Positions 2,548-36,935 of a stretch of DNA of 36,935 nt are shown here, in pieces. How positions within the stretch are numbered: the stretch's first letter is position 1; every line of letters begins with the position of its first letter. The position numbers and the translations under genes were made by a program. This DNA is from Sanchytrium tribonematis (lineage: Eukaryota). The stretch lies in assembly GCA_018985235.1 (NCBI GenBank), contig JADGIG010000032.1, positions 1-36,935 on the forward strand, given 5' to 3'. The notes beneath the pieces are model-generated. The model saw only the letters and a list, made by a program, of their open reading frames with translations, did not search any database and had not been told where the DNA came from.

Positions 2548-4553
2548 CTAATCTGGGTAGCTAGAAAGAGGATAACCTTGATCATAACGGCTATCATTTC
2601 TTCTCATTTTTAGTCTGTTATAGCGAGTTCTAATTCGAGGAATTGTACATCGTAAACAACCAATAAACATAAACAAAATGAGCAATAATAAAGCTATACC
2701 TAAATAAGGTTGGTCTTGAAAGTATGATATCAGCTGGTCGAAAATATTTTTGTACGCACAAGAACCATCTTTACAAAAGCCATTATATCCGCAACTTGTG
2801 CCGTCGATAAAATTACCAGTGAGCTGGACGCAAGCATTATAACTATTGGAATAACAGGTCAATTCACAGCTATTTTTAAGATCAGGACATGCCCCAGTCA
2901 TTCCAGATTTGCTACCACGAGCTTTGCATTGAATGTCCCTGCTAGTACAGAAGCCGCTTGCGCATTGCGCACTTACTCCATCTACCGCGCAAACTGTTCC
3001 GTCATCTTTATGAGTATCTGGAGGGCAATCGCCTGTATTTCCTTCACAAGTTTCTTCAAAGTCACAGTCTGGGTTGATGGCTTTTCGACAAGTACTGCCT
3101 TTTGATTTAAACTGACAATTATTGCAGCACAACTGGTTTTTGTCAGAACATTTGGCTCCATTTTTCAATTTACAATCCTTTGTGCAACAAGAATCTTTAT
3201 CGCATTGGTCTCCACAATCGCATTCTTCACCATCTTCTTTGATACCATTACCACAAACTTTGCCTTGAATAAGAGGTTTGCTGTTCGGTGGAAGAAGACA
3301 TTTGCCGTTGCTAGCTAAATTATTGCATATGTCTTTAATACTACAGGGAGAGAAATCATTCGACTTAATAGAAGCTGTTGGATTCATAATAAATTGACCA
3401 TTACAATCACAATTATCTGAACAAGGGCAACAACCTGAATTTGAAGCACCATTTGAGCAATCTAGTTTTGTACAGTCATGAACAGCTCCAAAATTATGTC
3501 CTATTTCGTGAGCGATGACTTGGAAACTGTCTCTGGAAGCCGCAGAGCTGACCCCGGCCCCGGATACTTGCTGCAATTTACCATCGACCTTTTGACTAAC
3601 CAATTCTGTCTCACAAACCTGATTCAGCCAAGCAACTCCAACCGTCGATCCGCTTGGACATGTCGTCACTATATAAGAATTATATTACCTAGATGCCATA
3701 GTCCAGCATCATTGCCACCATTAGTGGCCCGCCAAGACGAGAAATCTGACAATCTTTGAGTTATATCGTAATTGTCACTACAATCCTGATTCCACGTCGA
3801 GCTATCGGTTCCCGGACCGCATTCCATTTTTATATTGACTTTGAACAATCCCAGGCCTACATTAAATGTTCTTTCGTATATAGAGGAGGCCTGCGCAAAA
3901 TTTGAAATTAATTGCTGAACAATTTGACTTTGATCATTATCCAAAAGTCTGGCGTAAGTGCAATCAGTACTTGCGCCTAAATACAAGACTTTTTTATCTT
4001 GAGGACACCCTTGGGGGACATCCCTTTTACTTAATCTCAAAAAATACGGTTTTTTGCCTTGAATTATTTTGTTGTAAGGTAAATTGTGAGAGTTACAGCT
4101 CGGTGCTCCACTCAAATCAACAAGTTCTTCTTCTTTATATGAGATAAACTCAAATTTTTGTGGAGGATAAACATCATCCGATTTTCTGCTTCTGAGATAA
4201 ACAGATCTTTGCTTAATAATAAATGTTCCCTCTGTTGTAAGAATTCGACCTTCGTAAATTAAATTAGTTTGAGTTAATCGACCAACACCAATCTGTAAAT
4301 TTTGGAAAAGAACATCAACGTCGTAAACTTTAAATGTATTTTTGTGCAGTGCAGTTCTATTTAGATATTCAAATTGGATAATGGGATGAAAATTAATTGG
4401 CGTGAGCTTTAAATCGAATGTTTTGTTGTCTAATTTTAAATGTATCAAGGTATCATCCGAATGCAAACCTGTAAATTCTGCCCTGTTGATATTCCGAATT
4501 CCATCTAAAACCAATTGAGAGCCCAGGATAACATGCAAAAAAAGAAGCTGCAT
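2548..4553 (-). CDS. Fungal-type ADAM (disintegrin and metalloprotease), 661 aa; exons 4553-3689 and 3668-2548
   Basis: Hydrophobic N-terminus, prodomain, HEIGHNFGAVHD zinc motif, Met-turn FIMNP, disintegrin CGNGIKEDGEECDCG, Cys-rich region and C-terminal TM helix. Splicing gives GLWHL-VTTCPSG. Confidence 0.92.
3669..3688 (-). other. 20-nt spliceosomal intron in ADAM gene
   Basis: GTAATATAATTCTTATATAG; removal restores the frame inside the metalloprotease domain. Confidence 0.9.
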
Positions 4554-4666: not shown

Positions 4667-5258
4667 TTAATCCTTTAGCAAAGGTAAGGAAAAAAAGCCA
4701 GAATCTGGGAATTCTTGATGGTGCATGTGTTCATGCATTTGAAATGATCTTGTTCTTTCTTTTTTAACTTTTTGATACAACTGAATTGCGACTTGTTTCG
4801 CATTATCATATACATTATTATTATACATTCTAACGAAGATGGGGCATCTCATGAGATGGTTTTTTAATACGTCTGGCCGTCCACCTATTTTTATAAGCTT
4901 TCCACAATAATCGCAAGGGTATGGTGGAGCGTGAACCTACATTAATTTAATCTACGTTTTTGAGATGTCTAAGGGCGGTGCTTTGATCACAAAATTGTTT
5001 TTTACAAACGGGACAAACTGGGTCACCGCTGATTAAAGCGTTTCGTTTTTTCTTCTGGATAGGTTTTACTAAAGGTGGAAGGGGTAACTGAAATGGCGGA
5101 AGGGGTTGAAATTCCTCGAACCCGCAATATAGATTTAGTTTAATATCCATTTCTTCAAGATCGTGAGAGAGCATTCTTTTTGTTTCAACTTCGGTCAATG
5201 ACGCGAACGTCTGGTTTTGAAAGCCAAGATTTAAACGTGGAATGTAGACGGCATTCAT
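4667..5258 (-). CDS. Zinc-finger protein (C2H2 finger followed by a C2HC finger), 190 aa; exons 5258-4956 and 4936-4667
   Basis: Spliced product reads CPVCKKQFCDQSTALRHLKN|VHAPPYPCDYCGKLIKIGGRPDVLKNHLMRC. The second His of finger 1 appears only after splicing. Confidence 0.8.
4937..4955 (-). other. 19-nt spliceosomal intron in zinc-finger gene
   Basis: GTAGATTAAATTAATGTAG; joins ORFs 4947-5258 and 4667-4852 and completes the zinc finger. Confidence 0.88.
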
Positions 5259-5368: not shown

Positions 5369-6040
5369 TCATCCAATAACAAGCTTACCTTCATCAGTAA
5401 ATTGATGAGGAGGAATTTCCAGATTAAGAGGAGCCGGACCTTTTCGAATTCTGCCGCTGATGTCATAGTGACTACCGTGGCAGGGACAGTACCAGCCACC
5501 ATAGTCTCCAGAATTGCCTATTGGCACGCAACCTAAATGAGTGCAAACTCCTAGCATCACAAGCCATTCGGGATTTGTAGCACGGTCTTCGTCCTGTTCA
5601 GGATCTCGCAGAGTAGATATATTGACAGCTTTTGCTTCTTCAATTTCGCCCTGAGTTCGATGTCTGATAAAAATTGGCTTTCCTCTCCATTTAATCACAA
5701 TGTTCGTAGCTTCTGGAATTGCAGCTAAGTCGACTTCTACTTTGGCTAAAGCGAGAACATCAGCAGAAGCACTTAAATTTCCTAGAAAATCATGAACTGT
5801 ATTCTTCGCAGCAACAGTAGCCAACGCACCTGCGGAACCGACCATCGCATAAGCTAATTTGGAATTACCCTCAGTTCCTTCTTGATGATCAAAGGTTGGA
5901 GGAGCAGTATAATATCTCTTTTGAATAAAAGATTTGGGTGTAGGTGTAAATTGAGAGGAAGATTTAGTAGAGGTGCTTTTCATCATGGAAATTTTGCTTT
6001 TCACATTAGTTCTCCCAATTGATGTGAAGCTCTTCAACAT
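5369..6040 (-). CDS. RIP1: Cytochrome bc1 Rieske iron-sulfur subunit, mitochondrial
   Basis: Rieske motifs CTHLGC and [33 protein letters not shown]; Ser/Lys-rich presequence. Confidence 0.97.
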
Positions 6041-6493: not shown

Positions 6494-7916
6494 ATGCTTG
6501 ACATTTTGATTCTAAAGCAATCAAATGAATTGGAATTACTGAAAAAAAGTGAAAAGAGCCGCAACTCAAAGTTGAGTATTGATGAGATAGTTAAGCTCGA
6601 CGACGAATACAGAGCAACTAAATACGAAATGGACAATACAAATCGGAAATTCAATGAAATTTGCAAAGAAATGGGTAATTTATACAAAAAAAAAGATAAA
6701 TCAAATGAGGAAACTAAAAAAATTGAAGTTTTGAAATCAGAAAAGTTATTGATCGAAAATAACAAAAAGCAATTGATCCAATCTCAACAAACTAAATTAG
6801 ATAATTTATTGAAAGTATGGAAGAGCGTCGGAAATCTTGTTCATCCGAGTGTAAAAGTGTCAAACGATGAATCTGATAATGAAATTATCCGCAAGTGGGA
6901 TCCGCATTTAGAGCAAGTTCCAGATTCTAATATCCTTAAGCCTAAAACTCCACTTTCTCACCACCAAATTTTGGATTTGATCGGTGGATACTCTCCAGAT
7001 CAAGGCGTCAAGGTAGCAGGCCACCGTGGATATTTTCTGACTGGCGTAGGATGTAAACTATGGAGGGCATTAAGTAATTATGGTATTGACTTTTTAGAAG
7101 AACGAGAATACAGCCAAGTTTATACTCCGTTTTACATGAAAAAAGAAGTTATGGCGAGGACTGCCCAGTTGTCACAATTTGACGAAGAATTGTACAAAAT
7201 GGTAGGCGAAGAAGAAGCGTACCTGATTGCAACATCCGAGCAGCCATTATCCGCTTACCACATGAATGAATGGATAGAGCCTTCGAAACTGCCAATAAAG
7301 TATGCTGGATATTCGACTTGCTTCAGAAAAGAGGCAGGGTCTCATGGCAAAGATACTTGGGGAATATTTAGAATTCATCAGTTTGAAAAAATTGAACAGT
7401 TTGTATTAACTTCTCCTGAAAAGAGTTGGGAAATGCATGAATCGATGCTATCTGCGGCGGAAGACTTTTATCAAAGCGTAAACTTATTTTATTTAGTTGA
7501 ATGTTTCCTACAGAGTTGTCTCTATTGTTTCTGGTGCTTTAAACAATGCTGCTGCAAAAAAATACGACCTGGAGGCCTGGTTTCCCTTTCAGAACGAATA
7601 TAAAGAGCTAGTTTCATGTTCGAATTGTACAGACTATCAGTCTCGAGATTTGGAAATCCGTTACGGAACATCGGGTAAAGGAAAAGGTAATGAGTCTACA
7701 GAATCCGATGAAAAGAAATATGTGCATTTATTGAATTCGACTCTTTGTGCAGTCCAGAGAGCTTTGTGCTGCATTTTGGAAACATATCAGACAGATGAAG
7801 GCGTTGTTGTACCGAAAGTCCTACGAAATTATGTTGGTAAAGATTTTTTACCATTTGTTAAAAGTAAGGAAGAAATTTCAAAAGTTAATGCTAAGATTAA
7901 AAAAGGATCAAAGTAA
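6494..7916 (+). CDS. SES1: Cytosolic seryl-tRNA synthetase, 467 aa; exons 6494-7477 and 7497-7916
   Basis: Begins MLDI; motifs LIATSEQP, CFRKEAGSHGKDTWGIFRIHQFEKIEQF, ELVSCSNCTDYQSR. Splicing gives FYQS|LNVSYRVV. Confidence 0.97.
7478..7496 (+). other. 19-nt spliceosomal intron in SerRS
   Basis: GTAAACTTATTTTATTTAG; removal repairs the frame switch between the two SerRS ORFs. Confidence 0.94.
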
Positions 7917-8648: not shown

Positions 8649-11481
8649 TTATTCATTATCACTATCAATTGTAAGGCCTTTAGAGGGTCGCTTATAAATT
8701 TCTTTATCAGCAGCTATGTTGTCGGGCTGTTCAGGCTGCTTTTCCAAGTCATTCCTTTTCTTTCGTTTCCCCGATTTCGCTTTCTTCTTAATTTTATCAT
8801 CTTCTGAATTTGTTCTTTTTCTTGATTCCTCAGTGTATAACATCTCTTTCATTTTTTCTAAAAGTTGAACTCGCTCTTCCGAAAGCTCTTCCTGATCCTC
8901 TACCTTTTCAAATGTCATTTCTTTGACCTCTGTCATATCGGGCATGGTTGCTCTAGTTTTTTCTGACTTTAAAAAATGTTCATGTAAATTTCTTAGATTT
9001 TTGACGTCGTTTTCATAATCAAATAGTTTTCCAACTACTGAAGAAACATCAAGAAGTTGACGAAAGTGTTTATCTTCTATTGCCAATTTTATAGATTTCA
9101 AGCCAATTTCTGCCAGCTTTATTTTTTCATCACTGACAAATGCAGCATTCTTTAAAAAAAACTGTGATGTTTCAGACAATAATTTGTAAAAGTCAATAAA
9201 ATTTCGAAGGTGTGAAGGATTTTGAAAAGCGCATCTCTGGGAATATAATAAAGCCGATGAAAGCTCACTCTCATTGGATGTTATCAATGATGATTTGAAG
9301 TAAGCCCTTGAAATGTAAAATAGTAATTTTCCAAAAGTATTATCAGCGATTTCTAAATGCGCCAACGCAATTAGATACTCTTGAACTGCTTCCGTATATC
9401 TTGCTTCTTGCATTAGCAAATGAGCGTAGTTTGTTTGAATCATTATAATTTGTGGATGCGAAGCTCGAAGAATATTTAATTGTTGCAAGGCTTCGTGATT
9501 TTTACCTAATTTGTGCAACAATATGATAAAGGCATTTGCTACATACGGATTTTTTGGACTCAGTTGAAAAGCCACTTTAAACCATTTCAAAGCATTTTCG
9601 CACATTTTTTTAATTTCATTTTCATTAACTTTACCTAATTTGTTTTGCTTGCTTTCAAGAATATTAAGAAAGCAATTGCCCATATACAAAATTACCAAAA
9701 CACTAGATCTATCAATTTTGTTTAATTCGCTAAACAGAATCGCGGAAGAGTCGGGTTCATGCTTATTTGCCCAATATGCCAAATAAAATCTCGCCATAAA
9801 GTTTTCTGGATTTTCTTTGATTAGAGCCTCCAATTCGTCTTTTGGATTTTCACCGTGAATAGCAAGATAAAACGACAATCTTCGAATTACTAGATTAATC
9901 AAAATAACCATGTTCATGTAAGTCGCTGTCGAGCAAATCCTTATATTTCGAATATGCAGATTTTGGATCAGACACCTCTAGAAGTCGTAATTGATTAAAG
10001 CGCAATATGTTTAGCATATTACCTTGATGCTTCAATTGATTTAAAATAGATTCGATTTGGCCTAAAATGCATTTACAGTCACTATATCGCTTTTGATCAA
10101 ATAACAAAGCAGAATAGACTGTTAGATCTTTGACAACCTGCAAATTTGAACCATCTGCGTGAAAATATTGCAGAGCTTCTGGTTTGTTACTCATTCGATA
10201 AATTCGACCTTGTAAGCGAAAAAGGTCATTTTCGGTGAAGTACTTTTCACAATTTTCAATTTTAAATAGTATGTCCATTGATTTTTGAGCATGATTTAAG
10301 TGATTATAAAACTCTATTAAATGATTTCTTTTCTCGTCAGTTTTTTTCAGATCAAGCAGTTCAAATTTTCGCAACCTTAAAGAAATCTCGACATGCGACC
10401 AAGCTTTTAAAAATAAAATACTGATTGATAAAGCCTCATTGTTACTTGAAAGTAAGTTTTCAACTTTCTTTATCCTATTTAAAAACAATTCTGGAGATTT
10501 GTCATCCAAAAGGCAAAGCTGTGCGTGGTAGACAACAGATGGTTCGTCTCTAGTTTCACTTGCCATAAATTTATACATTTTTCTCGCCTTATCGAATTGT
10601 TTTTCAAAGTGAAATATCAAACCTAGACCCTTAGCAGCTAAGCATTTTATCTTCTTTGTTTGAGAATGGTCGTAAACAAACTGGAAAAGAATTTTGGACT
10701 TTTCGTAGGAACGTTCTAAGAAATAAATTTCTGCCAATTTCGAGATCATTCCCATATCGGGTCTAAGTGAATACTCTAATGCTTTTTTTAAGCACACAAT
10801 TCCCAATTTATCACTTTTTTTTAATAAAATTACACTAAGTAAATGCAAAGCTCTCTCATTTTTAGAATTGGTTGCCAAAATGTTGTGGCAAGCTAATTCC
10901 GCTTCTTTGTTCAGGCCCAAAGCTTCATAGCAAACAGCAATCTGTATCTTAATAGGCAAACCATCTATCTCCAAGTGATACGCCCATCTGAGAATTTTTT
11001 GAAATGCATCCAGCGCTTTTTCGTATAATTCCAATTGAACTAAACATAATCCGCGTATAAATTCAACTGAAGGCAAAAGGCTGACCAAATTTTGTTGATA
11101 AGCCTTTTTATATACTGAAAGGCAACCTGATAAACAGGTTTTGTAATCTTGCTGTAAATAGTAGAGTAAGACTTTCAAAAATTCAGATTGACAGGCCAAC
11201 ATATCGATTTTTTCAATTTCATCAATTGTGGCATTTAGCTGTTGCTTCTCCGTATTGCAAAAATGAGTTATACCTTTTAATAATTGACAAACCAATGTTA
11301 ATGGAAATTGCAAGTTACTTTCAAATTCAGTAGGTTGTTGCAATTCATTCATTAATAATCGAAAATGATGGTCATCAAGATCATGCGTACACAAAATTGG
11401 AAGAAGTTTAGAATAATGATCTACCACATCAGGTTTAGCAACTTCTAAAGTTTTCCCATTGTTCAGATTAAACTTTAACAT
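8649..11481 (-). CDS. Large TPR-repeat protein, probably divergent Paf1-complex subunit Ctr9, about 937 aa; exons 11481-9909 and 9889-8649
   Basis: TPR-like helices throughout (FKVAFQLSPKNPYVANA, TNYAHLLM) and a charged C-terminal tail ending TIDSDNE, as in Ctr9. Start placed at ATG 11481 because the longer ORF overlaps the transporter stop. Confidence 0.6.
9890..9908 (-). other. 19-nt spliceosomal intron in TPR gene (GTT donor)
   Basis: GTTATTTTGATTAATCTAG; joins the two ORFs in frame (LHEH-VIRRLSF) and matches the TNAYNTAG 3' consensus. Confidence 0.85.
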
Positions 11482-13207: not shown

Positions 13208-13468
13208 TCAAGTCCGTTGCCTCCTATGGCTTGACTTGTACTGCTTATATACATTATTTTCCTCATTATCAGCAACAAAATCAATGAGAGAACGGCTCGA
13301 CCTGAGTTGTGGCGGTTTATCACGTTGATTTAATCTTGAAAAATTGAGATCGACTTCGCTATGTGCTGAATCTTGCCTTTGCGTCTTCTTTTGGCTTCTT
13401 CTTTGCCTTCTTATATCTGCGACTGGATCCTGAGTAAAAAAACTAACTATCTTTTGAAAAAACCCCAT
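13208..13468 (-). CDS. Hypothetical small basic protein (86 aa)
   Basis: ATG-initiated ORF (MGFFQKIVSFF...) occupying the gap between CCT5 and the transporter. No known motif. Confidence 0.55.
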   Translation of the reverse strand: MGFFQKIVSFFTQDPVADIRRQRRSQKKTQRQDSAHSEVDLNFSRLNQRDKPPQLRSSRSLIDFVADNEENNVYKQYKSSHRRQRT

Positions 13469-13541: not shown

Positions 13542-15174
13542 TTATTGATGGTCAACGCCTTCGCCGTGATGAATAACATCGTCAATTTTCAATACCATCT
13601 TTACCAGTTGAGTAGCTAATAGGAATTGTGATCGTTTTGAGGTATAAGGATCAAAAACCTTATTTTTTAATTTAGCTGGCTCTCCAGTGAAGCAATCTAC
13701 ACCGACTCCACCAAAGTCTTGCGTGTTTTTCAATTTCCTTTGCTCGGCAATTACTCTTGTAACAAGTTGCATGCCATCATGTCCAGCATTGTCAGCCAAT
13801 GCAGTTGGAACAGCGAGTAATGCTTTTGAAAATGCACGGCAGGATAATTCCACCACATCGTCATGTCTCTCTGCAACATCCTCTACTGCGATCGCACATG
13901 CAATATCTGAAGCGCCTGCTCCGCAGACTATTTCTGGAGAGGAAATTAACGTTCTAACTACACACAATGCATCATGTAAAGACCTCTTTGTCTCCTCGAT
14001 TAACTAAATTAATTTAAACTACCATTTCATTGCCACCTCGGACTAATATTGTGCAAGTTTTTGGATTAGCACAATCTTCAATTACTAACATTTTGCTGTC
14101 GGTTGTTCCAAACCCAATTGTTTTGACTAATCCAGCTTTCCCTAACTTTTCTTTCGATAATTCGCTAAATCTAGGAACAATTCTGCCATGCGTCGCAATA
14201 GCCAATCGTTCTAAATCTGGACCCCCCACCCATCTGACAGCAGGTAGCTTTTGCTGATAAAGTAAATGATTCGCCTCATCGTCAAATCCCCACTGGCACA
14301 TAACTACGTTTGCTCCACTATCTTTACACTGCTGCACCATTTTGGTGAAAATCTGTTGTTCATATTCTGACAATTCTTTGTATGCTTTTGCATCTTTAAC
14401 ATCAAGTTTATGTTTAGTTTTTGGCTTGGGTGGTTCAAAGGGACAAGTGAGAATAGCAATTTTAGCATCTTTTACAGACTCTGGCATTTGAGGGTGTGAA
14501 AAGGATTTGTCAATAATAACACCCTGAATTAACTGAGTTTCTTCTAGTGATCCGCCGAGTTTACTTGTTACGTGAACTAGTTCTAAGTTGACTCTCCCAT
14601 TTTCATTTACAGATTGAACTGCATCAACCGCCATTTTCGCGAATTTATCATGAAATTTTGCGACAATTTTTGAGGAAAGACTAGTTTTGGCAGCTTGATA
14701 TAGCATGTCTGTATCAGCTTTCGATTTGATTTGATCTAAAGTTTTTATAGCTTCTTGGCAAGCAATATCGAATCCTTTAGCAATTCTAATTGGATGTATG
14801 CCCAAATTGATGAGGTGCTCTGCTTCTTTGAGTAGAGCTCCTGCTAAAACAACAACACTTGTTGTACCATCCCCGCATTCATTGTCTTGGGATAAAGATA
14901 ACTCGACCAAGAGCCTTGCTATCTGATGATTTACGTTCATTTCTTGCAAGATAGTAGCCCCATCATTAGTTACCATAACATCTCCATCTTGGCCAACAAG
15001 AATTTTATCCAGTCCCATTGGACCCAAGCTGGTTTTTATAATCTGTGTTAAAGAAGTAGCAGCAAGGATATGAGACTTGATTGCATCAGTTCCGCTAATT
15101 CTAGCTTTCTTTTCCTGTTCTCTGACTATTAGAAATGGTCTTCCCATTTCATCAACCGCTGTCGTGTATTGCAT
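13542..15174 (-). CDS. CCT5: Chaperonin CCT/TRiC epsilon subunit, 537 aa; exons 15174-14023 and 14003-13542
   Basis: [48 protein letters not shown]. Splicing gives [23 protein letters not shown]. Confidence 0.97.
14004..14022 (-). other. 19-nt spliceosomal intron in CCT5
   Basis: GTAGTTTAAATTAATTTAG; removal restores conserved chaperonin sequence. Confidence 0.94.
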
Positions 15175-15628: not shown

Positions 15629-16808
15629 ATGACCACCAAGGAAGAAGCTTTAGAAAAATATCGCGCTGCAGTTGAACAGCACACTGCATTAAATGAACAA
15701 TTGAAACAGTTGCGAAATAAGATTAAAGAAGGGCAGGCTGCGTTTGATCAGTCCGAAAAAGAGTTAGCATCGATTCAGAGTGTTGGGCAAATGATTGGTG
15801 AGGTTTTGAAGGTTTTGACTGAAGAGCATTATATTGTAAAATCGTCATCCGGACCTCGATATGTTGTTGGAAAGCGCCCAAAACTTCGTGCAGTAACTCA
15901 GGGCATGCGTGTCAGCTTAGACATGACTACTCTTACAATTATGAGAATATTGCCTCGGGAAGTTGATCCCATGGTTTATAACATGACTATGGAGAGCCCT
16001 GGCAATATTAACTTTGATGCTATTGGGGGCTTATCGGAACAAATTAGATCACTAAGAGAAGTTATTGAATTACCATTAGTTAATCCAGAATTATTTTTAA
16101 GAATCGGCATAAAACCACCAAAAGGTGTTTTATTGTATGGACCTCCTGGAACTGGTAAAACTTTGCTTGCTAGAGCAGTAGCTGCTACATTAGAAAGTAA
16201 TTTCATTAAAGTAGTTAGTTCTGCTATCGTGGACAAATATATTGGAGAATCTGGAAGAATTATTAGAGAAATGTTTGGTTATGCCAAAGATCACGAGCCT
16301 TGCATCATTTTTATGGACGAAATTGATGCGATTGGGGGAAGACGATTTAGCGAGGGTACTTCGGCCGACAGAGAAATCCAAAGAACCCTAATGGAGCTGC
16401 TACATCAGATGGACGGATTTGATGTCTTGGGAAAAACTAAGATTATCATGGCAACAAACAGACCGGATACTCTTGATCCTGCATGTAATCTTTATTTACT
16501 TAGTACTTCGCCCTGGAAGATTGGATCGTAAAATTGAGATTCCTTTGCCAAATGAACAAGCGAGAGGTGATATTCTAAAAATTCATTCCAATCCTATGGC
16601 TAAAAACGGAGAAATTGATTACGACCCAGTTGTCAAATTGAGTGATGGATTCAATGGTGCTGATCTTAGAAATGTGTGTACTGAGGCCGGAATGTTTGCT
16701 ATCCGAGAGGACCGAGATTACGTAATTCAGGATGATTTTATGAAGGCAGTTAGAAAAGTGGGCGACTCAAAGAAGCTTGAATCAAAGCTTGATTACAAGA
16801 AAGTTTAA
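15629..16808 (+). CDS. RPT4: 26S proteasome AAA-ATPase Rpt4, 386 aa; exons 15629-16484 and 16504-16808
   Basis: [62 protein letters not shown]. Splicing gives [14 protein letters not shown]. Confidence 0.97.
16485..16503 (+). other. 19-nt spliceosomal intron in RPT4
   Basis: GTAATCTTTATTTACTTAG; removal restores the invariant DPALLRPGR motif. Confidence 0.95.
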
Positions 16809-16865: not shown

Positions 16866-17835
16866 ATGTCGTCCTTCGCTCAACAAACTTTATCTGGGTT
16901 CCAACCACTCTTTACACCGCTTACCATGATAATGACTTGGATGGTGTCGTCTGTTGTATTTATAATTTCTGGAGTTTTGTTTGTATTATATTCACCAGCT
17001 CAAATTATAATTGACTACACGACATGTACTGGTAAATCAGTAAGACCAGACTATGTGAAAGATGATTCAACGGATGTTAAGCTTTGCAGACTAAAATTTA
17101 CTTTGGACAGAGATTATAATGATGTTTTGATTTATTATCAACTAAATAATTTTTACCAGAATCATAGAAAGTACGTTAAATCCAAAAATGATGATCAATT
17201 ATTTGGTACAGCCGTATCTGAGTCCAGTTTGTCCACTTGTGATCCCTTGATTACTGGTAAAAATGGCAAACCTATATATCCTTGTGGACTAATAGCGAAT
17301 TCGATGTTCGATGATCAAATTGCATTTTTGAATGACGGCAACAGCAATGTAACTTTGATATCTACAGGAATATCTTGGAGCAGCGACAAGGATAGATACG
17401 GAAAGACAAAATACTCTGCTGCAGATGTTGTTCCACCACCAAATTGGAGCTATAAATACAAAGATGGACTTTACACTGACGACACTATTCCAAATTTGCA
17501 GGAATATGAAGATCTTCAGGTTTGGATGAGAGTGGCCCCTTTTTCTAATTTTAATAAGCTTTGGAGGCGGGCCAGTTCTCTCAAGAAGGGAGATTATGTT
17601 TTAGGAGTATATGATCACTTTGATATTGTTTCATTTGGAGGTCAAAAAAAAGTTTTAATAACGACATCTTCTGTTTTAGGTGATTCTACAAATCTTGGAT
17701 ACATGTACGTCGGTACTGGGGTTATTTGCCTGATACTTGGGGTTACATTTTTAATAAAGCACAGAATGCACCCAAGGTATTACATACTAATTTAGAAAAC
17801 TCGGAGATACCTCTTACTTAAGTTGGAATAAATAA
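16866..17835 (+). CDS. CDC50/LEM3-family P4-ATPase flippase beta subunit, 316 aa; exons 16866-17776 and 17796-17835
   Basis: YYQLNNFYQNHRKYVKS, PCGLIANSMF, VWMRVA and two TM helices. The spliced C-terminus HPRKLGDTSYLSWNK matches the fungal Cdc50 tail. Confidence 0.93.
17777..17795 (+). other. 19-nt spliceosomal intron in CDC50-family gene
   Basis: GTATTACATACTAATTTAG; removal reveals the conserved PRKLGD..YLSWN terminus. Confidence 0.92.
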
Positions 17836-17840
17836 ACATC

Positions 17841-18890
17841 TTAGTTGCTCAAAAAATCAGATCTCCACATTTGGTCAATTTTCGAATATGGTTCCAATGG
17901 CAATTTATATGGTATATTACATGCCCCCTTTTCTAAAATTCCAAGTTCGTAAGACTTGATAAGAATTCCTGAGCCATCACTTAGACCCCACGCCGCAGTT
18001 GAAATATTATGTGATGTTGTTAAAATATATCGAAGTTCGCCATTTTTCAATATGCAAAAAGTCTTGATATGCGGAATGCATTGATTTAAATCGCTATCCT
18101 GGCAAACCCATTTATACAAATGGGGGATTAGCCAGTTTTTATGAAGTTTGTAGTTTTTTTCTTGATGAGGCAAGGAAAGGCCTGAATCTAATCCAGCATA
18201 ACTTCTTTTTACATTTTCTAGTGTGGGATATATAAATTGAAAATCTTTACAATTGAACGCATTCATCAAAGAGTAGATTGGAGATTTTTTGAAAGTTGTC
18301 CCAAGTCTGCCGATGCTACTGCATTGTATAATAAGCGTATCAAATTCTATATCTTTAAATAAGGCCCGTACCTTTGCCAAACCGTAATTACTAGCATTAG
18401 TGTGCCCAGGTACAGATGCAATAAGCACGAGGCTGGTGTCGAAGTGGTATAATTTTAAAAGACTACTAAGAACAGATAAATTACCATAATGCTTAACGTA
18501 ATCAATTAGGTCAGATCGAAAAGTTGATTCAGTTGACCCCAGTTGACCATCAATACGGTAAAAACCCTGAGTTTTATGCTTCCAATCTCTAGGAATAATA
18601 TTTGCTGTGTGAACAATAATAGTACATTGCTCTCTCGATAGGGCAATAAACATTTTGGTATGATGAGTGCCATAAGTGTATGGCATTTTAGGAGTGATGT
18701 ATCTAAATTCGCTCAAGTGGTCTGTTTTTTGGGCAATAACGGTCATGCTTTTGAAGTTGTAATTAGCAAACAAAGATTTGCAAAATGAAGATTCAAACAT
18801 GTAATTGAACACAAATAAATGATCATAATTTTGGTTTTTGAACATCTTAGCTATGGTTTTAAGTGGATCAAATGGGTCAAAAGTTTGCAT
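17841..18890 (-). CDS. TDP1: Tyrosyl-DNA phosphodiesterase 1 (catalytic core only)
   Basis: Two HxK motifs (YGTHHTKM...HTAN; PHIKT...SHNISTAAWG), plus LIASVPG and SYELGIL. Confidence 0.92.
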   Translation of the reverse strand: MQTFDPFDPLKTIAKMFKNQNYDHLFVFNYMFESSFCKSLFANYNFKSMTVIAQKTDHLSEFRYITPKMPYTYGTHHTKMFIALSREQCTIIVHTANIIPRDWKHKTQGFYRIDGQLGSTESTFRSDLIDYVKHYGNLSVLSSLLKLYHFDTSLVLIASVPGHTNASNYGLAKVRALFKDIEFDTLIIQCSSIGRLGTTFKKSPIYSLMNAFNCKDFQFIYPTLENVKRSYAGLDSGLSLPHQEKNYKLHKNWLIPHLYKWVCQDSDLNQCIPHIKTFCILKNGELRYILTTSHNISTAAWGLSDGSGILIKSYELGILEKGACNIPYKLPLEPYSKIDQMWRSDFLSN

Positions 18891-19062
18891 AAAATAACTC
18901 AAAAATTATAGAATGTTTGGAAAATTTTTCACTTGGGGAATTTCATGATGTATAAATGGAGACAATTTGACTTGTTGCTAAAACTTCAGCTTGTTAATTA
19001 AATTATAAAAAATTACCAATCAACCACTTAAATCAATCAAAAACTTTTTTTAACGAAATTAG

Positions 19063-20591: not shown

Positions 20592-21371
20592 CTAAAAAAA
20601 CGAAATAGGATTAGATCCCAATTTGGAACCAGCATTTTCCTTCAAAATCGCATTAATTTTTTGAAATAGTACTTTGCCATTTTCAATTGCATTAGTCACC
20701 ATATTTTTTAATAAAAGTGGAGTGCATAATCCACCATTTGTTGTGCTGACATGTAAGACTTCAGTAGCAATTAAAACATGTATGACGATATCTCCAGCCT
20801 GAATTTCTTCTAGCCTTGGATCGAGGCAAAATGTAGAGCCTAAATTGACTGCGGTGCATGAAATTGGGAATTTGTCAAATGATGGAAGCCGAGTGGCTAA
20901 ATAAATATCCTCTTGGACTTCTATTTCGCCATTTAGAACCTTTAACTTGGGAAGAGTAGTATCCCAAATTGCTGCTTTCATAGCTATTAAGCAACAGTCG
21001 ACAATATTTCCATCAGCATTTAGAAATGAAATTGTCACATTTAATTTCCAATTGTATTTCTCATCAATATGCGGAACAGGAATATTTATATTTGTCAAAA
21101 CAGATTCTAAGTCGCCTATTTGTTCTTCTGTAACATCGCTTTTTTTATCAATTGTTATACCGAGAGTTTTGGAAGAATCCCCCACTATTTCTCCCATAAT
21201 TTGCACAACGCAAATCACCGAACCTAAATTGCACTTGGAGCTTCCATTTGCTCTCGGAAGCACTCCAATACTTATGCTGATATCATTAAAATCAAATATT
21301 TGTCTGCCGTCGATTCTGCAGTTTTTAAGTACTCCGTTAGAAATGTATTTCTTTTCCGTCAGAGACATCAT
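20592..21371 (-). CDS. RRP42: RNA exosome RNase PH-like subunit Rrp42
   Basis: SLTEKKYI..GV....RIDGR, ANGSS, DGNIVD, DTTLP, LDPRLEE. Confidence 0.82.
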   Translation of the reverse strand: MMSLTEKKYISNGVLKNCRIDGRQIFDFNDISISIGVLPRANGSSKCNLGSVICVVQIMGEIVGDSSKTLGITIDKKSDVTEEQIGDLESVLTNINIPVPHIDEKYNWKLNVTISFLNADGNIVDCCLIAMKAAIWDTTLPKLKVLNGEIEVQEDIYLATRLPSFDKFPISCTAVNLGSTFCLDPRLEEIQAGDIVIHVLIATEVLHVSTTNGGLCTPLLLKNMVTNAIENGKVLFQKINAILKENAGSKLGSNPISFF

Positions 21372-21711: not shown

Positions 21712-23522
21712 TTATTCTAAAACGACACCTAGGTTCTTTTCCGCATCTTTGTCACTTTCATTTTCACTTTCAATGCTCATGTTTATTGACGATCCGTTGC
21801 CCGATGCATCAATTTTAAAGGATTGTTGACTAGGCAAAGGAGATAAAATTGCTTTTTGAATTTGAGGGTTGGAACTATTTGCCCCCCTGCTACTCAAAGA
21901 AGTACTCAATCTTGGCTCTGAGGGATGTGGTGATCTCATGTGTAGTTCTGTCATGCTACCTCTTCTGGAAATGGCTTTTTTAAAATCAACCACCATATTT
22001 GAAAACGAGGAAGATAGCCTCCTTACGCCTCTTTTCAGCTTATCCATTATAGTAAATGCGTTTTCTACCTCATTTTGGGTAACTTCAATAACATCGTAAT
22101 TCGATGGACTGGTTTCGGCCAGCCACCTTGTAACTTGTTCCTCAGTCATCTCTTTTATTATCCATGGATGCACTTTGATCTCATCTAAAGTGATTCTTTT
22201 ATCCCAACGTTTTTCTAATAGTTTTTTAAGTAGATTTTTGCATTCTTCAGATCCGCCTGGTGGAAATTCAAGCTCCTGTTTGGGTATAATGTCAAGCAGT
22301 TCGTATTCATTTGCAGCAGTAAAAGGTACCTGGCCATAAATTAAACAGTATAGAGTAACACCTAATGCCCATATGTCAATACTTTTTGTAATATAAACTT
22401 TATATGAGGGGTCATCTATAAGAGGATGCGGTTCGTCGTCATACTTGATAGGGGTGTGGAGCTCGTCAGTTGCGACGCAAAGTTCGGGTGCAAAAAATGC
22501 GGGTGACCCAACAGTCTTTTCCAATTCTGGATCTTCCTCAATTTGTTTTCTAGGATTGTTTTGATCATGTTGGAGTTTAGGAGAAAAGTGAGAAACACCA
22601 AAATCTGTGATTTTGACGATAAGTTGTTTTTCATTATCTTCGTTCGTTTCATAGGTGTATAGCAAATTTGCAGGTTTTATATCTCTATGAATGACACCTT
22701 GGTAATGCAGATAATCTAGACCACTTATAACTTGTTTAATTATATATCTAGCCTGATCTTCACTTAAAACAGCAACATATTCAATAGATTCATCACTATC
22801 TGTACTAAAATGATCACCAACATAAAATTGAGACCCACTTTGCTGCTCACTCCAATTATACATTTCTCGATGAGGCTCCAAATGGCGAAAATCTTCGTTT
22901 TCCTCAGGATAAGGATTAGTATCTTGATCTGTCCAGAGCACTGGAGAATTCATAGAAAAATCTTCCTCGTCGCTAGAATCCGAAATGCTAAACGAATTGC
23001 TTCTAAAAATTGAATCAAAATCCTCCGGAGTAGCATTTGGATGTCCATTGGTTTGATGGCTAGATTTCCTACGCCATTTTACATGACCGTAGCAGTATTC
23101 CATAATTAAATAAACATTTTGGTCAAATGGATCTTCAATAACTTCCAAAAGTCGCACAACATTTGGGTGATTTAATTTTTTCATAATGGCTATTTCTTTT
23201 TTAATTAAATTCAAATATTGATGCCCATTGGAAAAATTTCCTTTTTTTGTTTTGGGTATGACTTTTATCGCAACAAAGAGATTGTCTGAGTGAGAAGTTG
23301 ATTTTCCCATACAGACCTTTCCATGAACGCCTTTACCGATAGTTTTTATAACTAAATTATTTTGATAATACCAATAAATTGATTAATTTGTTTATAACCA
23401 AGAGGTGAAGTTCCTTTCACCAATGCATTAGTATATTTGACTGGAGGAGTTACACTGCTGACGCTCCCATGTCTAGATATTTCGACTTCATCTTCTTTTT
23501 TTGGTTTTAAGAGTCCTTTCAT
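21712..23522 (-). CDS. CaMKK-family Ser/Thr kinase (Sak1/Tos3/Ssp1-like), 596 aa; exons 23522-23372 and 23351-21712
   Basis: Splicing gives KQINQFI-VIKTIGKGVHGKV (Gly loop). Also VAIK, EIAIMKKL.HPNVV.L.EVIEDP, HRDIKPANLL, DFGVS, TVGSPAFFAPE, DIWALGVTLY. Confidence 0.92.
23352..23371 (-). other. 20-nt spliceosomal intron in kinase gene
   Basis: GTATTATCAAAATAATTTAG; links an ATG-initiated 151-nt exon to the Gly-loop frame. Confidence 0.88.
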
Positions 23523-23648
23523 TGAAACTAAGGAGTTTAGTAAATGTGCGCTATTAATTTTAATTTAAACTATTTTCGAAGAAGTAAGCACATGTCGACT
23601 ATAATCCTGTTAAACTCAAACAGCTACTTATTTATTATCGCGATTAAT

Positions 23649-24857
23649 TCAAGCATTGGTAAGTGAGATATTAGAAGAATCATCTTTCACCAAAATTACA
23701 TCCTCAATTCTTATCCCAATCCCCCAATACTCTTTTGGAATATCGCTGCTAGGATTAAAATAAACTCCAGGCTCGATTGTGATTACTGAATTTTTGGGAA
23801 ATAATTTAGTTCCTGATATAGTAAGCGTGTCATGCACATCTAAACCAATATAATGGGTGACTGAATGTGGAAATATATTATTAATGTTGACAAAGGGAAA
23901 CTCTTTATGAAGCAACTCTTTAGATTTTAATTCTAATATTGCAGGAGATGCTGCTGTGGTTGCCATTTGAATCAGTTCGTATTGAACCCTTTGTAATTTA
24001 TCATGAATTTCAGTATACAACTGAGTAGGGCGATATTTCCATGATCGACACATATCCGAGTTATAATTCTCTATCGTTACTCCGAAATCCACGACCATAT
24101 GATCCTTTTTGGATATTGGCATATTATTCTGGTGATAGTGTGGATACAGAGTATTTGTACCGCTGGCGATAAACGGCGTGAAAGCAAGTTGGCCTTTATT
24201 TCGATTCACTTCAAAACATATTTGGCTCAAAATATCATTTTCGTTTTCAAATATGTTATTTTGAATACTTTTCATTACTTCTGAATTGATTTTACAAGCT
24301 TTGCTTATTAATTGAATTTCTGAATCTGATTTCGAGCAACGTAGCTCATCCAGTAACAAAGGACGAGTATTAATTTGCTCTGCACAATAGAGTTTCCATC
24401 TTTGTTGAATGGAATGAGGAAAATTTGTATTGAAAGGCGGCTGATTTGTATAAACAAATTTTGGATTTAATTTCCGCATGAAATTGGAAAACTCTGCTAT
24501 GGAATGAACCGCGCAATCTTTTAATTCCGGGTACGGCGAAGAGTAAATGTCCCTTTTAGGTGTAAATAAATGATATTCGTACGAAAATCTAGTGGGTAAT
24601 AATATTGCAATACAATCAGGTATATTTAATCCAGTCAAATAGTAAAATGAAGAATTTTGCTTGAATGGTACGGATACATGTGGAGAATAAAAGAGGCTAT
24701 TATTCCCAAAAACAACAATCGGTTCTTGTTTGTCTTTTAAAACTATGGATCTTCTAGATTTGAATTCAGTGTTTGTTATAAACTGCTCCGGATGGCCCGT
24801 TTTGAGTTTGAATTCTATATTGGGCTGAGATTTAAATTTGTTGAAAATTTTCCACAT
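23649..24857 (-). CDS. Xaa-Pro aminopeptidase (M24B), Icp55/XPNPEP3-like
   Basis: FKQNSSFYYLTG; metal ligands VDFG..YNSDMCR, HYIGLDVHD, TIEPG, GIRIEDV. Confidence 0.88.
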   Translation of the reverse strand: MWKIFNKFKSQPNIEFKLKTGHPEQFITNTEFKSRRSIVLKDKQEPIVVFGNNSLFYSPHVSVPFKQNSSFYYLTGLNIPDCIAILLPTRFSYEYHLFTPKRDIYSSPYPELKDCAVHSIAEFSNFMRKLNPKFVYTNQPPFNTNFPHSIQQRWKLYCAEQINTRPLLLDELRCSKSDSEIQLISKACKINSEVMKSIQNNIFENENDILSQICFEVNRNKGQLAFTPFIASGTNTLYPHYHQNNMPISKKDHMVVDFGVTIENYNSDMCRSWKYRPTQLYTEIHDKLQRVQYELIQMATTAASPAILELKSKELLHKEFPFVNINNIFPHSVTHYIGLDVHDTLTISGTKLFPKNSVITIEPGVYFNPSSDIPKEYWGIGIRIEDVILVKDDSSNISLTNA

Positions 24858-24932: not shown

Positions 24933-25005
24933 GCCTTTATAGCTCAGTTGGTAGAGCGCTGCACTAGTAATGCAGAGGTCTTCAGTTCAACTCTGAATGG
25001 AGGCA
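24933..25005 (+). tRNA. tRNA-Thr (anticodon AGT), intronless, 73 nt
   Basis: Acceptor GCCTTTA/TGGAGGC, D arm GCTC..GAGC, anticodon stem CTGCA-CTAGTAA-TGCAG, T loop TTCAACT. A T5 tract at 25009-25013 is a likely Pol III terminator. Confidence 0.95.
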
Positions 25006-25327: not shown

Positions 25328-26615
25328 TTAGTGTTGCGTCCACTGAATTGTCTTTAAATCGATTCCTTCTTCGACTGCCATTTCCCACAAGGGACTCATT
25401 TCTCTTAATCTGTTGACTTGCATAACTATTATTTGAATTAGTTCATCTACTTCTTCCTCTGTTGTAAATCGACCTATTCCAAATCTAATCGAAGAGTGTG
25501 CCATATCGTCGTCCGTTCCTAAGGCACGGAGAACATACGATGGTTCCTAAATTAAAAAGGGTTACCAAAGAGGCGGAAGTGCATGCAGAGCCACTTGAGA
25601 GAGCATGGCCATTAAGCGCCATTAATAGTGATTCACCTTCGACGTATCCAAAACTCAAATTCACACATCCAGGATATGTATGATTCAAATCCCCATTTCT
25701 TGTAACATGAGAAAGTTTGGAAGTTATTCCTTGAACGAGCCTATTACTTAAAGTTTCAATTCTTTTAGATTCTTCTGCCATGTGATCAATCGCGAGTTGG
25801 CAAGCTTCACCGAAGCCGACAGTCAGTGGGGTCGGGACAGTACCACTTCGTAACCCTCTTTCTTGGCCACCACCATGTATTAAGGGTTCCAGTCGCACTC
25901 GTGGTCTTCTTCTGACGTACAAAGCACCAATCCCTTTCGGGCCATATATTTTATGACCAGATAGAGATAGCGCAGCAATATTCCAAGATTTGACGTCTAT
26001 AGGTATTTTTCCAAGGGCTTGAGCAGCATCAGTATGAAGTAAAACTTTTGTATCCTTGCATAGCTGTCCAATTTCCTTCATAGGTTGAATTACACCAATT
26101 TCATTATTGACCGTCATAATGCTAACCATGATAGTGCTTGGACGAATCGCATTTTCAAGATCCTTCAATTTAACAATACCTCCCATATCAACTGGCAAAT
26201 AAGTAACCTCGAATCCTTGAGTCTGTAAATATCGACATGAATCCAGAACACATTTATGCTCAGTCTGAGTTGTAATGATATGATTTTTAGACTCAGATTT
26301 GTAAAATCTAGAAATGCCTTTAAGTGCAGTATTATTTGCCTCAGTGGCACCACTTGTAAATACGATTTCTTTAGGATCCGCATTTATAAGTTTGGCAATT
26401 TGACTTCGAGCTAATTCAACTGCTTTTTCGCTCTCCCAGCCAAAAGCATGTGTTCTGCTATGTGGATTGCCGAACATGACATCAAAATATGGCAACATTC
26501 TCTGAACAACCCTTGGATCTGTTGGTGTAGTAGCCTGGTAATCAAAGTAAACCGGAACGCCATTTCTTTTTACCAATTTTGGCACGAAATGTATCGATCT
26601 ACAAAAATGTGTCAT
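25328..26615 (-). CDS. NFS1: Mitochondrial cysteine desulfurase, 422 aa; exons 26615-25566 and 25546-25328
   Basis: [34 protein letters not shown]. Splicing gives [21 protein letters not shown]...SPLWEM...IQWTQH. Confidence 0.97.
25547..25565 (-). other. 19-nt spliceosomal intron in NFS1
   Basis: GTAACCCTTTTTAATTTAG; removal restores SASLEPSYVL and the conserved C-terminus. Confidence 0.95.
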
Positions 26616-27105: not shown

Positions 27106-28339
27106 TTACTTTTGAATTTTTAAAAATGAATCTCCTAGATCATTAAGAAGATCTTGAGTATCTTCAACCCCACAGCTTAAGCGGATAAATCCATCATTAA
27201 TTCCTAAGGTTGCTCTATCTTTAGGATCGACGCTAGCATGTGTCATACTAGCTGGATGTTCAGCAAGTGACTCTACTCCTCCTAAGCTTTCAGCACATAC
27301 AAACACACTCAAGCTATCTAAAAAAGTAACACAGTCTTTGTAAGATCCTTTTAAAACAAAAGATACCATACCACCAAAAAGTTGAACGTTACCATAATGA
27401 TGGCCCATTTGTTTTTTTGCAACAGCATGTTGTGGATGCGACTCCAATCCAGGATAAATTACCTTATCAACAAGTGGGTGAGTTTCCAAATATTTCGCAA
27501 CAGCCAAACCATTCTTGGAATGTTGCTGCATTCTCAAGTGTAATGTTTTAATACCTCTCATAACTAGGTAACAATCAAATGGAGAGGGAACATTTCCAAG
27601 GCAATTTTGCATAAATTTCATTTCCTCATAAATCGCTTCGTCATTAGTGATGCAAATTCCCATAACAGCATCAGAGTGTCCATTAATGTACTTTGTGATT
27701 GAATGTACAACAATATCTGCTCCTAAGTCCAGAGGTTGTTGCAAAATTGGGGAGCAAAACGTATTATCCACAACAACAAGGGTGGTAGGGCTTATCGACT
27801 TTACAATTTTTACCGTCTCCGCAATATCCACCACCATTACTATATTATATAAAACTACATGTTGGGTTTGTAGGTGTTTCAATCCATACTAAAGGTACAT
27901 TTTTTAAAGCCTTCAATTTGTCCTTGAGAGTATCAGGCTTAGTCATATCACAAAAGCTCACATTCTTGTATAGCTTTGTAAAATAACGATACGTTCCCCC
28001 GTAAACGTCAGACATACATAATATGTGAGATTCTGGAGCGCGTTTGAAGCAGATTTCAGCCAACAATGCAGTACAGGCAGAACCACTTGACAAAGCTACT
28101 CCAAATTTTCCCTTCTCTAACTTTGCTAGTCCATCTTCGAGCAAATGGCGTGAAGGGTTTCCACTTCTTCCATATTCAAAATTAATCTTAGAAACCTTGC
28201 TTTGTCTAGTTGGAGAAGGCTCCCTTCGAGTTTTAAAAGTTGTGCTTAATGAGATCGGTGCAATAACTGCATTGGTCAATTCATCGATTTCATCAACATG
28301 AACACTTAGAGTACCCAAATTTTTTTGCTCTCTTCCCAT
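27106..28339 (-). CDS. CYS3: Cystathionine gamma-lyase (Cys/Met metabolism PLP enzyme), 404 aa; exons 28339-27859 and 27839-27106
   Basis: PISLSTTF, EYGRSGNP, DVYGGT, spliced WIETPTNPT-LMVVDI, VVDNTF, HSITKYINGHSD, AESLGGVESL. Confidence 0.9.
27840..27858 (-). other. 19-nt spliceosomal intron in cystathionine gamma-lyase
   Basis: GTAGTTTTATATAATATAG; removal restores ETPTNPTL..VDI. Confidence 0.94.
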
Positions 28340-36600: not shown

Positions 36601-36935
36601 GTCCAATGACTCTTGGGCGACAAAACAGTAGTCAATAGATCCTAAATCCTTATTAGCAGAAATAATACTTTCATATGGTAAGTTTTTGTGTTGAAGTACA
36701 TCAAGTAATTGAAGTTTGATTCTTTGAAAGTATACAATCAGGTCAATATCATCAATGACCTGAAATAAGAACGGAATAGTATTCACAAAAAACCCTATAG
36801 TATTTTCGAATTTAGGATCGTCTCTCAATGAGACTGGAGTGCAAACGGTGCAATCGTTTTCATTTAGATATTTTAACAAATGCAACCCAAACGTGCCGAA
36901 CAGAAAAGCGAAAGGTGCTATGTTCAAAAATTTAC
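33649..36935 (-). CDS. Non-ribosomal peptide synthetase, terminal module C(partial)-A-T-R; 5' part outside window
   Basis: C-domain motifs IGFFVNT and LPYE; A-domain FTSGSTGIPKGV, FDVS, YGPTE, YNTGD, GRKDFQVKVRGFRVEL, NGK; PCP FFSIGGNS; reductase ILLTGASGFVG, HCAAQVN, YVLSK. Frame is open to the window edge. Confidence 0.93.
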   Translation of the reverse strand, partial: KFLNIAPFAFLFGTFGLHLLKYLNENDCTVCTPVSLRDDPKFENTIGFFVNTIPFLFQVIDDIDLIVYFQRIKLQLLDVLQHKNLPYESIISANKDLGSIDYCFVAQESLDVIGDVKTKILHNNSCKFDISVVVDYKKSGEMSLNMEFNQRKYSDLVATEFLNSYEALILELSLSRLSRPISSISLKNTRSLICQPYDTLVYKVGNTAHEIIDLSASIATNKPAIIFGETTISFKDLVEISNYYAQIICKNCRTQSYVGVFMDRRIEMIVSILSIWKAGCIFVPLDPKIPDDRLKFIVEQSNINFILFSDKMPFKVENSSLVALKNRSKFNPERNVSGEDVAYCLFTSGSTGIPKGVLITHFNLVSYITSLSQMQEISQTDKGSMMHTFTFDVSLQESMTALMNRCTLYLFQDEDMFNPQKIWEIIENQRLSHVSIPIIVFYKMLKFEYCPKHLVRIQLGGENLDKSRIPQWFKCNKNFEIWFMYGPTETTVACTTLKLNEHYEDLRNNIGQPLPGYNVWILDHNKNLLPIGVYGDLCVSGCGVGSGYLDAAKTKEKFFECSLLNKTRLVYNTGDIARITHDGFIQYLGRKDFQVKVRGFRVELNEIQSIISKVRNVEDCICLVLENRSEPYITAYVLGEVQIENIFLKCQSCLPYYMIPSAIVKLDAFPTQVNGKINVKGFPLPMEDDFFSSVIVEPESEIESNVRAKVADVLGIGPEKVSVTSSFFSIGGNSTMASKLSQFLDVKISIIFKYQSVRGIASFLGNRAQQADRDYLSDADIVDDVIIKSRSKQESQDTKILLTGASGFVGSYIMSNLSQKYKTTCAIRDPQINISKIHDLTLRYKYLENANFENIEFIDISKINVEEFHLILHCAAQVNFVDTYDSMKAFNVDFTKELLHNCYCSERQPKFIYISTLSCMDVESPTDSPNNYVLSKLIAEKVCLNYQRLNYPCSIYRIGQITGDSVYGQYFASDLISNMLSCIKKSKLIPDIEFEIEWTPVDIIAKEIESKMFSDQAVINFLPPKTYKIQDLVGCLPGSKLTEWKDWKSCNASQLGVFYSLLPDNFTLKSHSGHYNWETFPLDLELIKAYLINL

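Follow-up and report, generated by a model that had tools for sequence, protein, structure and literature searches.

Gene content and short inserts of the window

The window, by which we mean the whole stretch of 36,935 nt analysed here, is a gene-dense eukaryotic sequence with 32 gene models in the standard code, which together make 34.3 of its 36.9 kb coding. Twelve of the 32 genes (38%) carry a single GT-AG insert, 19 nt long in ten cases and 20 nt in two, and none of the models has more than one. Each insert, once cut out, gives one open frame, and all 32 models are then open. The lengths are never a multiple of three (12/12), the interiors are about 89% A+T and differ from one another in sequence, and three of the inserts lack an in-frame stop. 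Nine lie in the 3' half of their gene, whereas intron-poor fungi usually have theirs biased towards the 5' end. The sample consists of 12 introns from one window, in which stop-free introns of a length divisible by three could escape detection. The inserts, with the support for each junction, and the single RNA gene are as follows.

1092-1110, reverse strand: topoisomerase I (TopI), 19-nt intron, phase 0; best of 374 deletions, exact PDB register
3669-3688, reverse strand: ADAM metalloprotease, 20-nt intron, phase 1; frame restored, the two halves of Pfam Reprolysin meet to within about 2 profile positions
4937-4955, reverse strand: C2H2 zinc-finger gene, 19-nt intron, phase 0; frame restoration only
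7478-7496, forward strand: seryl-tRNA synthetase (SerRS), 19-nt intron, phase 0; best of 984 deletions, relatives decode to 19 and 22 nt at the site
9890-9908, reverse strand: Ctr9-like TPR gene, 19-nt intron with GTT donor, phase 1; frame restoration only
14004-14022, reverse strand: CCT5, 19-nt intron, phase 0; exact register with CCT-epsilon PDB chains
16485-16503, forward strand: Rpt4 (proteasome ATPase, gene 15629-16808), 19-nt intron, phase 1; best of 1165 unfiltered deletions
17777-17795, forward strand: Cdc50, 19-nt intron near the 3' end, phase 2; frame restored, PDB alignment of exon 1 stops exactly at the donor
23352-23371, reverse strand: protein kinase, 20-nt intron, phase 1; frame restoration only
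24933-25005, forward strand: tRNA-Thr(AGT); ARAGORN and Rfam
25547-25565, reverse strand: cysteine desulfurase Nfs1, 19-nt intron, phase 0; best of 1022 deletions, tied with equivalent shifts; relative P0259 decodes to 19 nt
27840-27858, reverse strand: cystathionine gamma-lyase (CGL), 19-nt intron, phase 1; exact register with 1n8p
33503-33521, forward strand: SLA1-like gene, 19-nt intron near the 3' end, phase 1; frame restoration only

The Rpt4 insert at 16485-16503 is GTAATCTTTATTTACTTAG, with a putative branch A at 16498. ARAGORN and Rfam searches of the window returned no snRNA gene, the tRNA-Thr being the only RNA gene. An intronless ORF of more than 1094 aa at 33649-36935 (reverse strand) resembles, by eye, an adenylation-thiolation-reductase (Lys2-like) enzyme.

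The best Rpt4 matches, 94% and 92% identical, cluster with a protein of Amoeboradix gromovi, and identity to A. gromovi itself amounts to 90% for Rpt4, 74% for SerRS and 80% for Nfs1. In a midpoint-rooted SerRS tree (32 rows picked from 120 matches, aphelid and rozellid rows absent), the window protein, that of A. gromovi and two ENA proteins form one clade with support 100/100. Judged by these proteins, the window organism is a sanchytrid fungus of the A. gromovi clade, a parasite of algae, and distinct from A. gromovi itself.

Placement of the junctions

For the scoring of junctions, all deletions of 10-60 nt around the break that restored the frame without a stop were made, with fixed edges and no splice-signal filter, and each resulting protein was compared with 12 homologs. 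The 19-nt GT-AG cut obtained the top score in Rpt4 (1/1165), SerRS (1/984), Nfs1 (1/1022) and TopI (1/374), tied only with shifted cuts that yield the identical protein; the margin over other 19-nt cuts is small for SerRS (431.8 versus 431.2). At the Rpt4 junction, the proteins of six relatives break at the identical codon, and a seventh protein, P0125, is continuous across it. Together with CCT5 and CGL, these genes give six junctions pinned by homology independently of any motif. The inserts themselves and their boundaries at these six genes are direct observations.

The other six junctions (Cdc50, ADAM, Ctr9-like, kinase, zinc finger and SLA1-like) have no exact homology pin. The Ctr9-like intron is the least secure of the 12, since alternative joins are possible there and a PDB search returned no homology spanning the junction; for the protein kinase junction, there was no PDB match at 1e-15. 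As expected of U2-type introns, removal of GT...AG restores the frame in 12/12 genes, and a conserved protein where homology pins the junction.

An invariant end signal with A at −6

An earlier note on this DNA described an invariant intron ending, TNAYNTAG, in which the branch point is fused to the acceptor. All 12 endings that it gave are present in the sequence, and the motif is observed directly, with T at −8, A at −6, Y at −5 and the terminal TAG in 12/12 introns. Its other counts also stand, namely a GTA donor in 11 of 12, with GTT at 9890-9908 (reverse strand) as the exception, and no polypyrimidine tract. The statement that CAG never occurs holds within the window (0/12) but not outside it; CAG ends two decoded 19-nt introns from other organisms, and the exclusive use of TAG is therefore a local feature. 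Conservation reaches further upstream, with W at −10 in 12/12 and Y at −9 in 10/12, and A at −7 is found in 8/12. By these columns, the motif extends to a degenerate form, WYTRAY, of the branch consensus WCTRAY given in excerpts of PMC2483917. Selection for stop codons was rejected as the cause of the motif, given that −7 varies and that three of the introns have no in-frame stop.

All six homology-pinned introns contain TNAY, which was matched by 1 in 50,000 shuffles, and all six have A at −6, matched by 20 in 50,000. When the 12 introns were shuffled internally, at least three invariant columns never arose (0/200,000) and any invariant-A column arose 20 times in 200,000. Among AT-rich 19-mers ending in TAG on both strands, 29 of 238 contain TNAY, 12 of these being the introns, which leaves a background rate of 17/226 outside them.

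Pairing with U2 was assessed by sliding the canonical GUAGUA motif, which may not be that of this organism's U2, along the introns. Register −6 is the sole one with an A in 12/12, and averages 4.5 of 6 pairs, while no other register exceeds 3.6; the U2-type arrangement of GUAGUA pairing around a bulged A is thus found at −6 for the canonical motif. The long invariant 5' consensus of U12-type introns (RTATCCTT) is absent, with positions +4 to +8 varying freely. The earlier note had inferred that the −6 A is the branch point, and this agrees with the best U2 register, with the retention of the A in relatives and with the spacing in Yarrowia and Stentor; the −6 A likely acts as branch point.

A minority reading, to which we give a low though not negligible probability, accepts the introns as real and takes TNAYNTAG for a protein-bound extended acceptor word, comparable with TTTCAG in Caenorhabditis elegans; branching would then use an A of variable position, or no ordinary lariat would form, as proposed for the nucleomorph 'caliper'. 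Excerpts of the literature offer precedents, in that C. elegans conserves positions −6 and −5 (PMC2483917) and Bigelowiella natans has introns of 18-21 nt without a branch A, for which a caliper was proposed (PMC6009652), and other As are on offer in the window, at −7 in 8/12 and at −10 in 7/12 introns. However, the conserved letters are those that U2 pairing predicts (T at BP−2, Y at BP−3 and BP+1), no second register has an invariant A, and the identical geometry is read as a branch site in Yarrowia and Stentor, all of which argues for branching at the −6 A.

Introns of relatives

Intron-blind gene callers translate through tiny introns, and the introns of relatives were decoded by back-translating the resulting protein tails. 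Counting the window's own protein in each case, proteins broken at the window's intron position number 7 of 126 for Rpt4, 7 of 122 for SerRS, 4 of 120 for Nfs1 and 22 of 139 for TopI; of the 22 TopI rows counted as broken, P0382 alone gave a good decode and several are divergent full-length proteins, and the weak decodes P0439 and P0487 were left out of the counts. Clear decodes gave introns of 19 nt (P0123, P0139, P0259, P0228/P0375 and P0382, with P0126 weaker) or 22 nt (P0001/P0124 and P0137). In the five informative cases, all phase 0, codon identity dictates both the A at −6 and the Y at −5 (5/5), with endings of three TAG and two CAG, and the A stays at −6 when the length goes from 19 to 22 nt. 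Four decodable Rpt4 relatives are compatible with the motif, but their codons do not fix −6. P0125, a sanchytrid Rpt4 of 387 aa, runs straight through the junction and may represent a spliced transcript or an intronless gene. P0002, P0121, P0138, P0257, P0258 and P0208 were not decodable and were excluded; three proteins of A. gromovi end inside the intron and cannot be decoded for that reason. P0002 is a possible counter-example, since an intron of 19 nt together with TGG as the Trp codon would put G at −6; alternatively, TGA is read as Trp or the intron is longer.

These data bear on two further readings. That the motif is an artefact of a small sample, AT richness and by-eye picking of introns, with motif-free introns also present in the genome, is improbable; the sample of 12, the A+T content of the interiors, the invisibility of stop-free 3n introns and the possible exception P0002 would favour it, whereas the six junctions placed without regard to the motif all carry it, against the shuffled and background rates given above, removal of a motif-bearing intron repairs each of the window's broken genes, and relatives keep the −6 A. 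The least probable reading, of unspliced assembly errors, pseudogene lesions or recent mobile elements, can appeal to the facts that no RNA run is among the matches listed for this DNA and that X1, the only sequencing run matching it, may be its own source, but is contradicted by breaks in essential single-copy genes at GT-AG boundaries, by relatives in which the breaks fall in the same codons and the interior sequence is different, by unrelated eukaryotes that break at the same TopI and SerRS positions, and by X1 contigs that, among the matches listed, are gap-free at every insert. Introners would have similar interiors and new, lineage-specific positions; here the interiors differ, and unrelated eukaryotes have breaks at the TopI and SerRS positions too.

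Run X1 also contains lower-depth variant contigs, up to about 8% different, at 17394-17675, 18861-19014, 10300-10350, 23558-23619 and 24149-24222, which represent a second haplotype or paralogs.

Probably old positions and a likely second origin

Two of the 19-nt decodes, P0228/P0375 (SerRS) and P0382 (TopI), come from outside the sanchytrids; both end in AAY-CCAG and lie at the window's positions. The 32-row SerRS tree places P0228 with Kappamyces, Entophlyctis helioformis and Batrachochytrium (support 100/99), and a chytrid that is not a sanchytrid therefore likely has the same 19-nt design. This Rhizophydiales-like chytrid would likely represent a second fungal origin of 19-nt introns. No placement was obtained for P0382.

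In nine more TopI proteins, the break falls in this codon too, with a GT-compatible Val, which suggests that the TopI position is old and that introns there shrank in place. Given also the SerRS breaks in unrelated eukaryotes, the introns of TopI and SerRS, at the least, probably go back to old intron positions at which they became shorter. A sanchytrid Rpt4 sequence pattern had 0 matches in metagenome, viral and genome contigs, a small-intron SerRS pattern had 0 in metagenome and genome contigs, and no SerRS or CCT5 locus was found in viral contigs.

Donor choice and intron length

Donor information ends at GTA, with G at +5 in 0/12 introns. The ruler-like recognition proposed in the earlier note is retained for the 3' distance, which the 22-mer P0137 keeps as well, but the 5' distance covers a range and is not a strict ruler, introns being 19-20 nt here and 19 or 22 nt in relatives. 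Both CCT5 and CGL bypass a GTT donor that lies in frame at 16 nt. Among 28 TNAYNYAG words on the sense strand of coding sequence, there are 0 with a GT at 19-20 nt against 2.7 expected (P=0.07), and 4 with a GT at 17-22 nt against 9.8 expected (P=0.04); this avoidance of decoys is weak and also seen at 23-35 nt (P=0.06-0.10). Intact ADAM coding sequence contains a perfect TAATTTAG for which GTA donors exist at 27 and 30 nt. The pattern of decoys and skipped donors fits a length-limited choice of donor, for which it is weak evidence when taken alone.

Motif matches at 1299-1319, 3315-3341, 5533-5548, 18605-18625 and 20897-20918, longer or of 3n length, were read as decoys because they are located in intact conserved coding sequence, from which we infer that they are not used. 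The one at 18605-18625 (reverse strand), a 21-nt GTA...TCACACAG match within the Tdp1 domain, is suited as a decoy for length or TAG specificity. At 7687-7701 (forward strand), a 15-nt in-frame GTA...CAG without TNAY lies in a lengthened SerRS loop and is probably coding. An 18-nt in-frame GTT...TTACTCAG match at 13430-13447 (reverse strand), in an 86-aa ORF without family assignment, is a possible 3n intron.

Comparison with known short-intron systems

By length, the 12 introns of the window (19-20 nt) are candidates for the ultrashort fixed-length class (Stentor, mikrocytids and nucleomorph), in which all introns lie in a narrow range of about 21 nt or less; relatives give 19 or 22 nt. The following comparisons are made with excerpts of the cited papers. 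The earlier note had suggested convergence with ciliates, and the spacing in Stentor is indeed equal; the closest precedent for the fused end is, however, a fungus, Yarrowia lipolytica, in which there is no polypyrimidine tract and ACTAAC + 2 nt + AG puts the branch A at −6 (Irimia & Roy 2008, PMC2483917; Mekouar et al. 2010, PMC2911113). For Yarrowia, a joint reading of branch point and acceptor has been put forward before (PMC2483917, PMC2911113). Yarrowia introns differ in their median of 204 nt, strong ACTAAC and GTGAGT, and mostly CAG acceptors (PMC2483917, PMC2911113), against 19-20 nt, degenerate TNAY, a bare GTA donor and TAG in the window. With the fixed BP-AG class (Yarrowia, Trichomonas and Giardia type), the window introns share a branch motif at a fixed distance, 12/12 at −6, without a polypyrimidine tract, but not the strong ACTAAC-like branch and strong 6-nt donor, only TNAY being invariant.

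The introns of Stentor coeruleus, 15-16 nt, are likewise tiny and AT-rich with a GUA donor (Nuadthaisong et al. 2022, PMC9505925); the putative branch A is nt 10 in 15-mers and nt 11 in 16-mers, which is −6 in both, and the most common intron ends in UAUAUAG (PMC9505925). Stentor differs in being a ciliate, in its 10-nt loop versus 14, and in its mostly 3n lengths (PMC9505925), and the two designs are of independent origin. Chlorarachniophyte nucleomorph introns are similarly AU-rich, GU-AG and 18-21 nt long, with a caliper model proposed (Wong et al. 2018, PMC6009652), but belong to a relic endosymbiont nucleus, have no discernible branch A and number about 3 per gene (PMC6009652), compared with 12 in 32 genes here.

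Microsporidia are also reduced parasites of the fungal lineage with very short GT-AG introns, and have a CTAAYTT branch motif; Encephalitozoon cuniculi differs in its 22-76 nt range, about 37 introns, strict donors and heavily reduced spliceosome (PMC3629993, PMC6349667). The window introns are shorter and uniform, occur in 38% of genes, and lie in the 3' half in 9/12. Narrow classes of very short introns are known from other parasites, namely mikrocytids (16-17 nt, PMC10245619), which are rhizarian, and myxozoans and dicyemids (median 22 nt, PMC13644364), which are animals; the A-rich branch signal of myxozoans is weak and drifts from the AG as introns lengthen (PMC13644364), whereas here it is fixed at −6.

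Proposed splicing mechanism and the spliceosome

We consider that the inserts are, with a probability of about 0.8, ordinary U2-type spliceosomal introns shrunk to 19-20 nt, with the −6 A as likely branch point, which forms with the acceptor a single end signal of 8 nt. TNAYNTAG would be marked by BBP/SF1 and U2AF35, and U2 GUAGUA would pair with intron nt 9-15, bulging A14. The donor, little beyond GTA, would be picked as a GT 13-14 nt upstream, A14 would attack G1 to give a 14-nt lariat loop, and the AG five nt past the branch A would be used for ligation without scanning. The suggestion of the earlier note that U1 and U2 could hardly bind at the same time needs qualifying, in that their predicted RNA footprints (+1 to +6 for U1, +9 to +15 for U2) do not overlap and leave 2 nt between them, and U1-70K, U1A/U2B'' and Luc7 are annotated in A. 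gromovi. On such a short intron, a protein clash with SF3b is plausible. A minimum distance between branch point and acceptor is normally imposed by Prp18 and Slu7, and a lesser need for both is predicted.

According to excerpts of the cited papers, Slu7 is dispensable where branch and acceptor are no more than 9 nt apart (PMC10158995); in S. cerevisiae, Prp18 imposes a minimum of about 10 nt, and 7 nt is the shortest distance seen in its absence (PMC10711555). By the convention of PMC10711555, the distance here is 5 nt. Points that speak against the U2-type reading set out above are the small sample of 12 introns from one window, the weakness of the decoy avoidance, the four Rpt4 relatives whose codons leave −6 unfixed, the possible G at −6 in P0002, the six junctions without exact homology pins, and this distance being below the 7 nt seen in prp18-deleted S. 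cerevisiae, although the consensus of Yarrowia also has 5 nt.

A term search of the eggNOG sheet of A. gromovi (PMC8371127 supplement) finds Prp8, SF3B1, Brr2, U1-70K, U1A/U2B'', Luc7, U2AF35, U2AF65, BBP, Isy1, Cwc25, Prp17 and Prp22, and the spliceosome looks fairly complete by annotation. As for U2AF65/Mud2, whose degeneration the earlier note proposed to look for, U2AF65 and U2AF35 are both annotated in this sheet and hence not lost in A. gromovi. The same term search returned no entry for Slu7, Prp18, Prp28, U1-C or Prp40; the absence of Slu7 and Prp18 is only a lead, because the annotation covers 3757 of 7220 proteins, from intron-blind ORFs.

A wider reading that joins these threads is speculative and, in our estimate, doubtful. 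Sanchytrids would have the shortest modal introns of opisthokonts (19 nt) and would have shed Prp18 and Slu7, perhaps also Prp28 and U1-C, which act on the U1-donor helix; the 8-nt word would set branch and acceptor, with the donor measured back from it, and a Rhizophydiales-like chytrid would have arrived at the same design independently. If this were true, the 19-nt design with a −6 A would be a structural floor for lariat splicing in fungi.

Novelty and consequences for annotation

The fused branch-acceptor itself is known from Yarrowia and Stentor; its pairing with a 19-nt length in a fungus appears unreported. We found no report of sanchytrid introns or splicing in the literature on Sanchytrium, Amoeboradix and Sanchytriomycota, nor, among the matches listed in the short-intron and chytrid literature, of a fungal intron below 22 nt, most subscription journals being outside both searches. 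If the pattern is true genome-wide, the fungal floor of intron length drops from about 22 to 19 nt, and one, probably two, independent origins are added to the tiny introns of Stentor type with A at −6. Sanchytrid introns would then bear on what sets minimum intron length, and sanchytrids offer a direct test of whether very short branch-to-acceptor distances go along with loss of Prp18 and Slu7.

For the published sanchytrid proteomes, TransDecoder was run on genomic contigs, and the predictions are intron-blind. In EukProt, 10 of the 10 intron-bearing window genes looked up are truncated, unspliced read-through proteins, and sanchytrid gene counts, phylogenomic alignments and claims of gene loss may need re-annotation. 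BBP/SF1 appears in the searched A. gromovi sheet as two adjacent ORFs, as an unannotated intron would produce.
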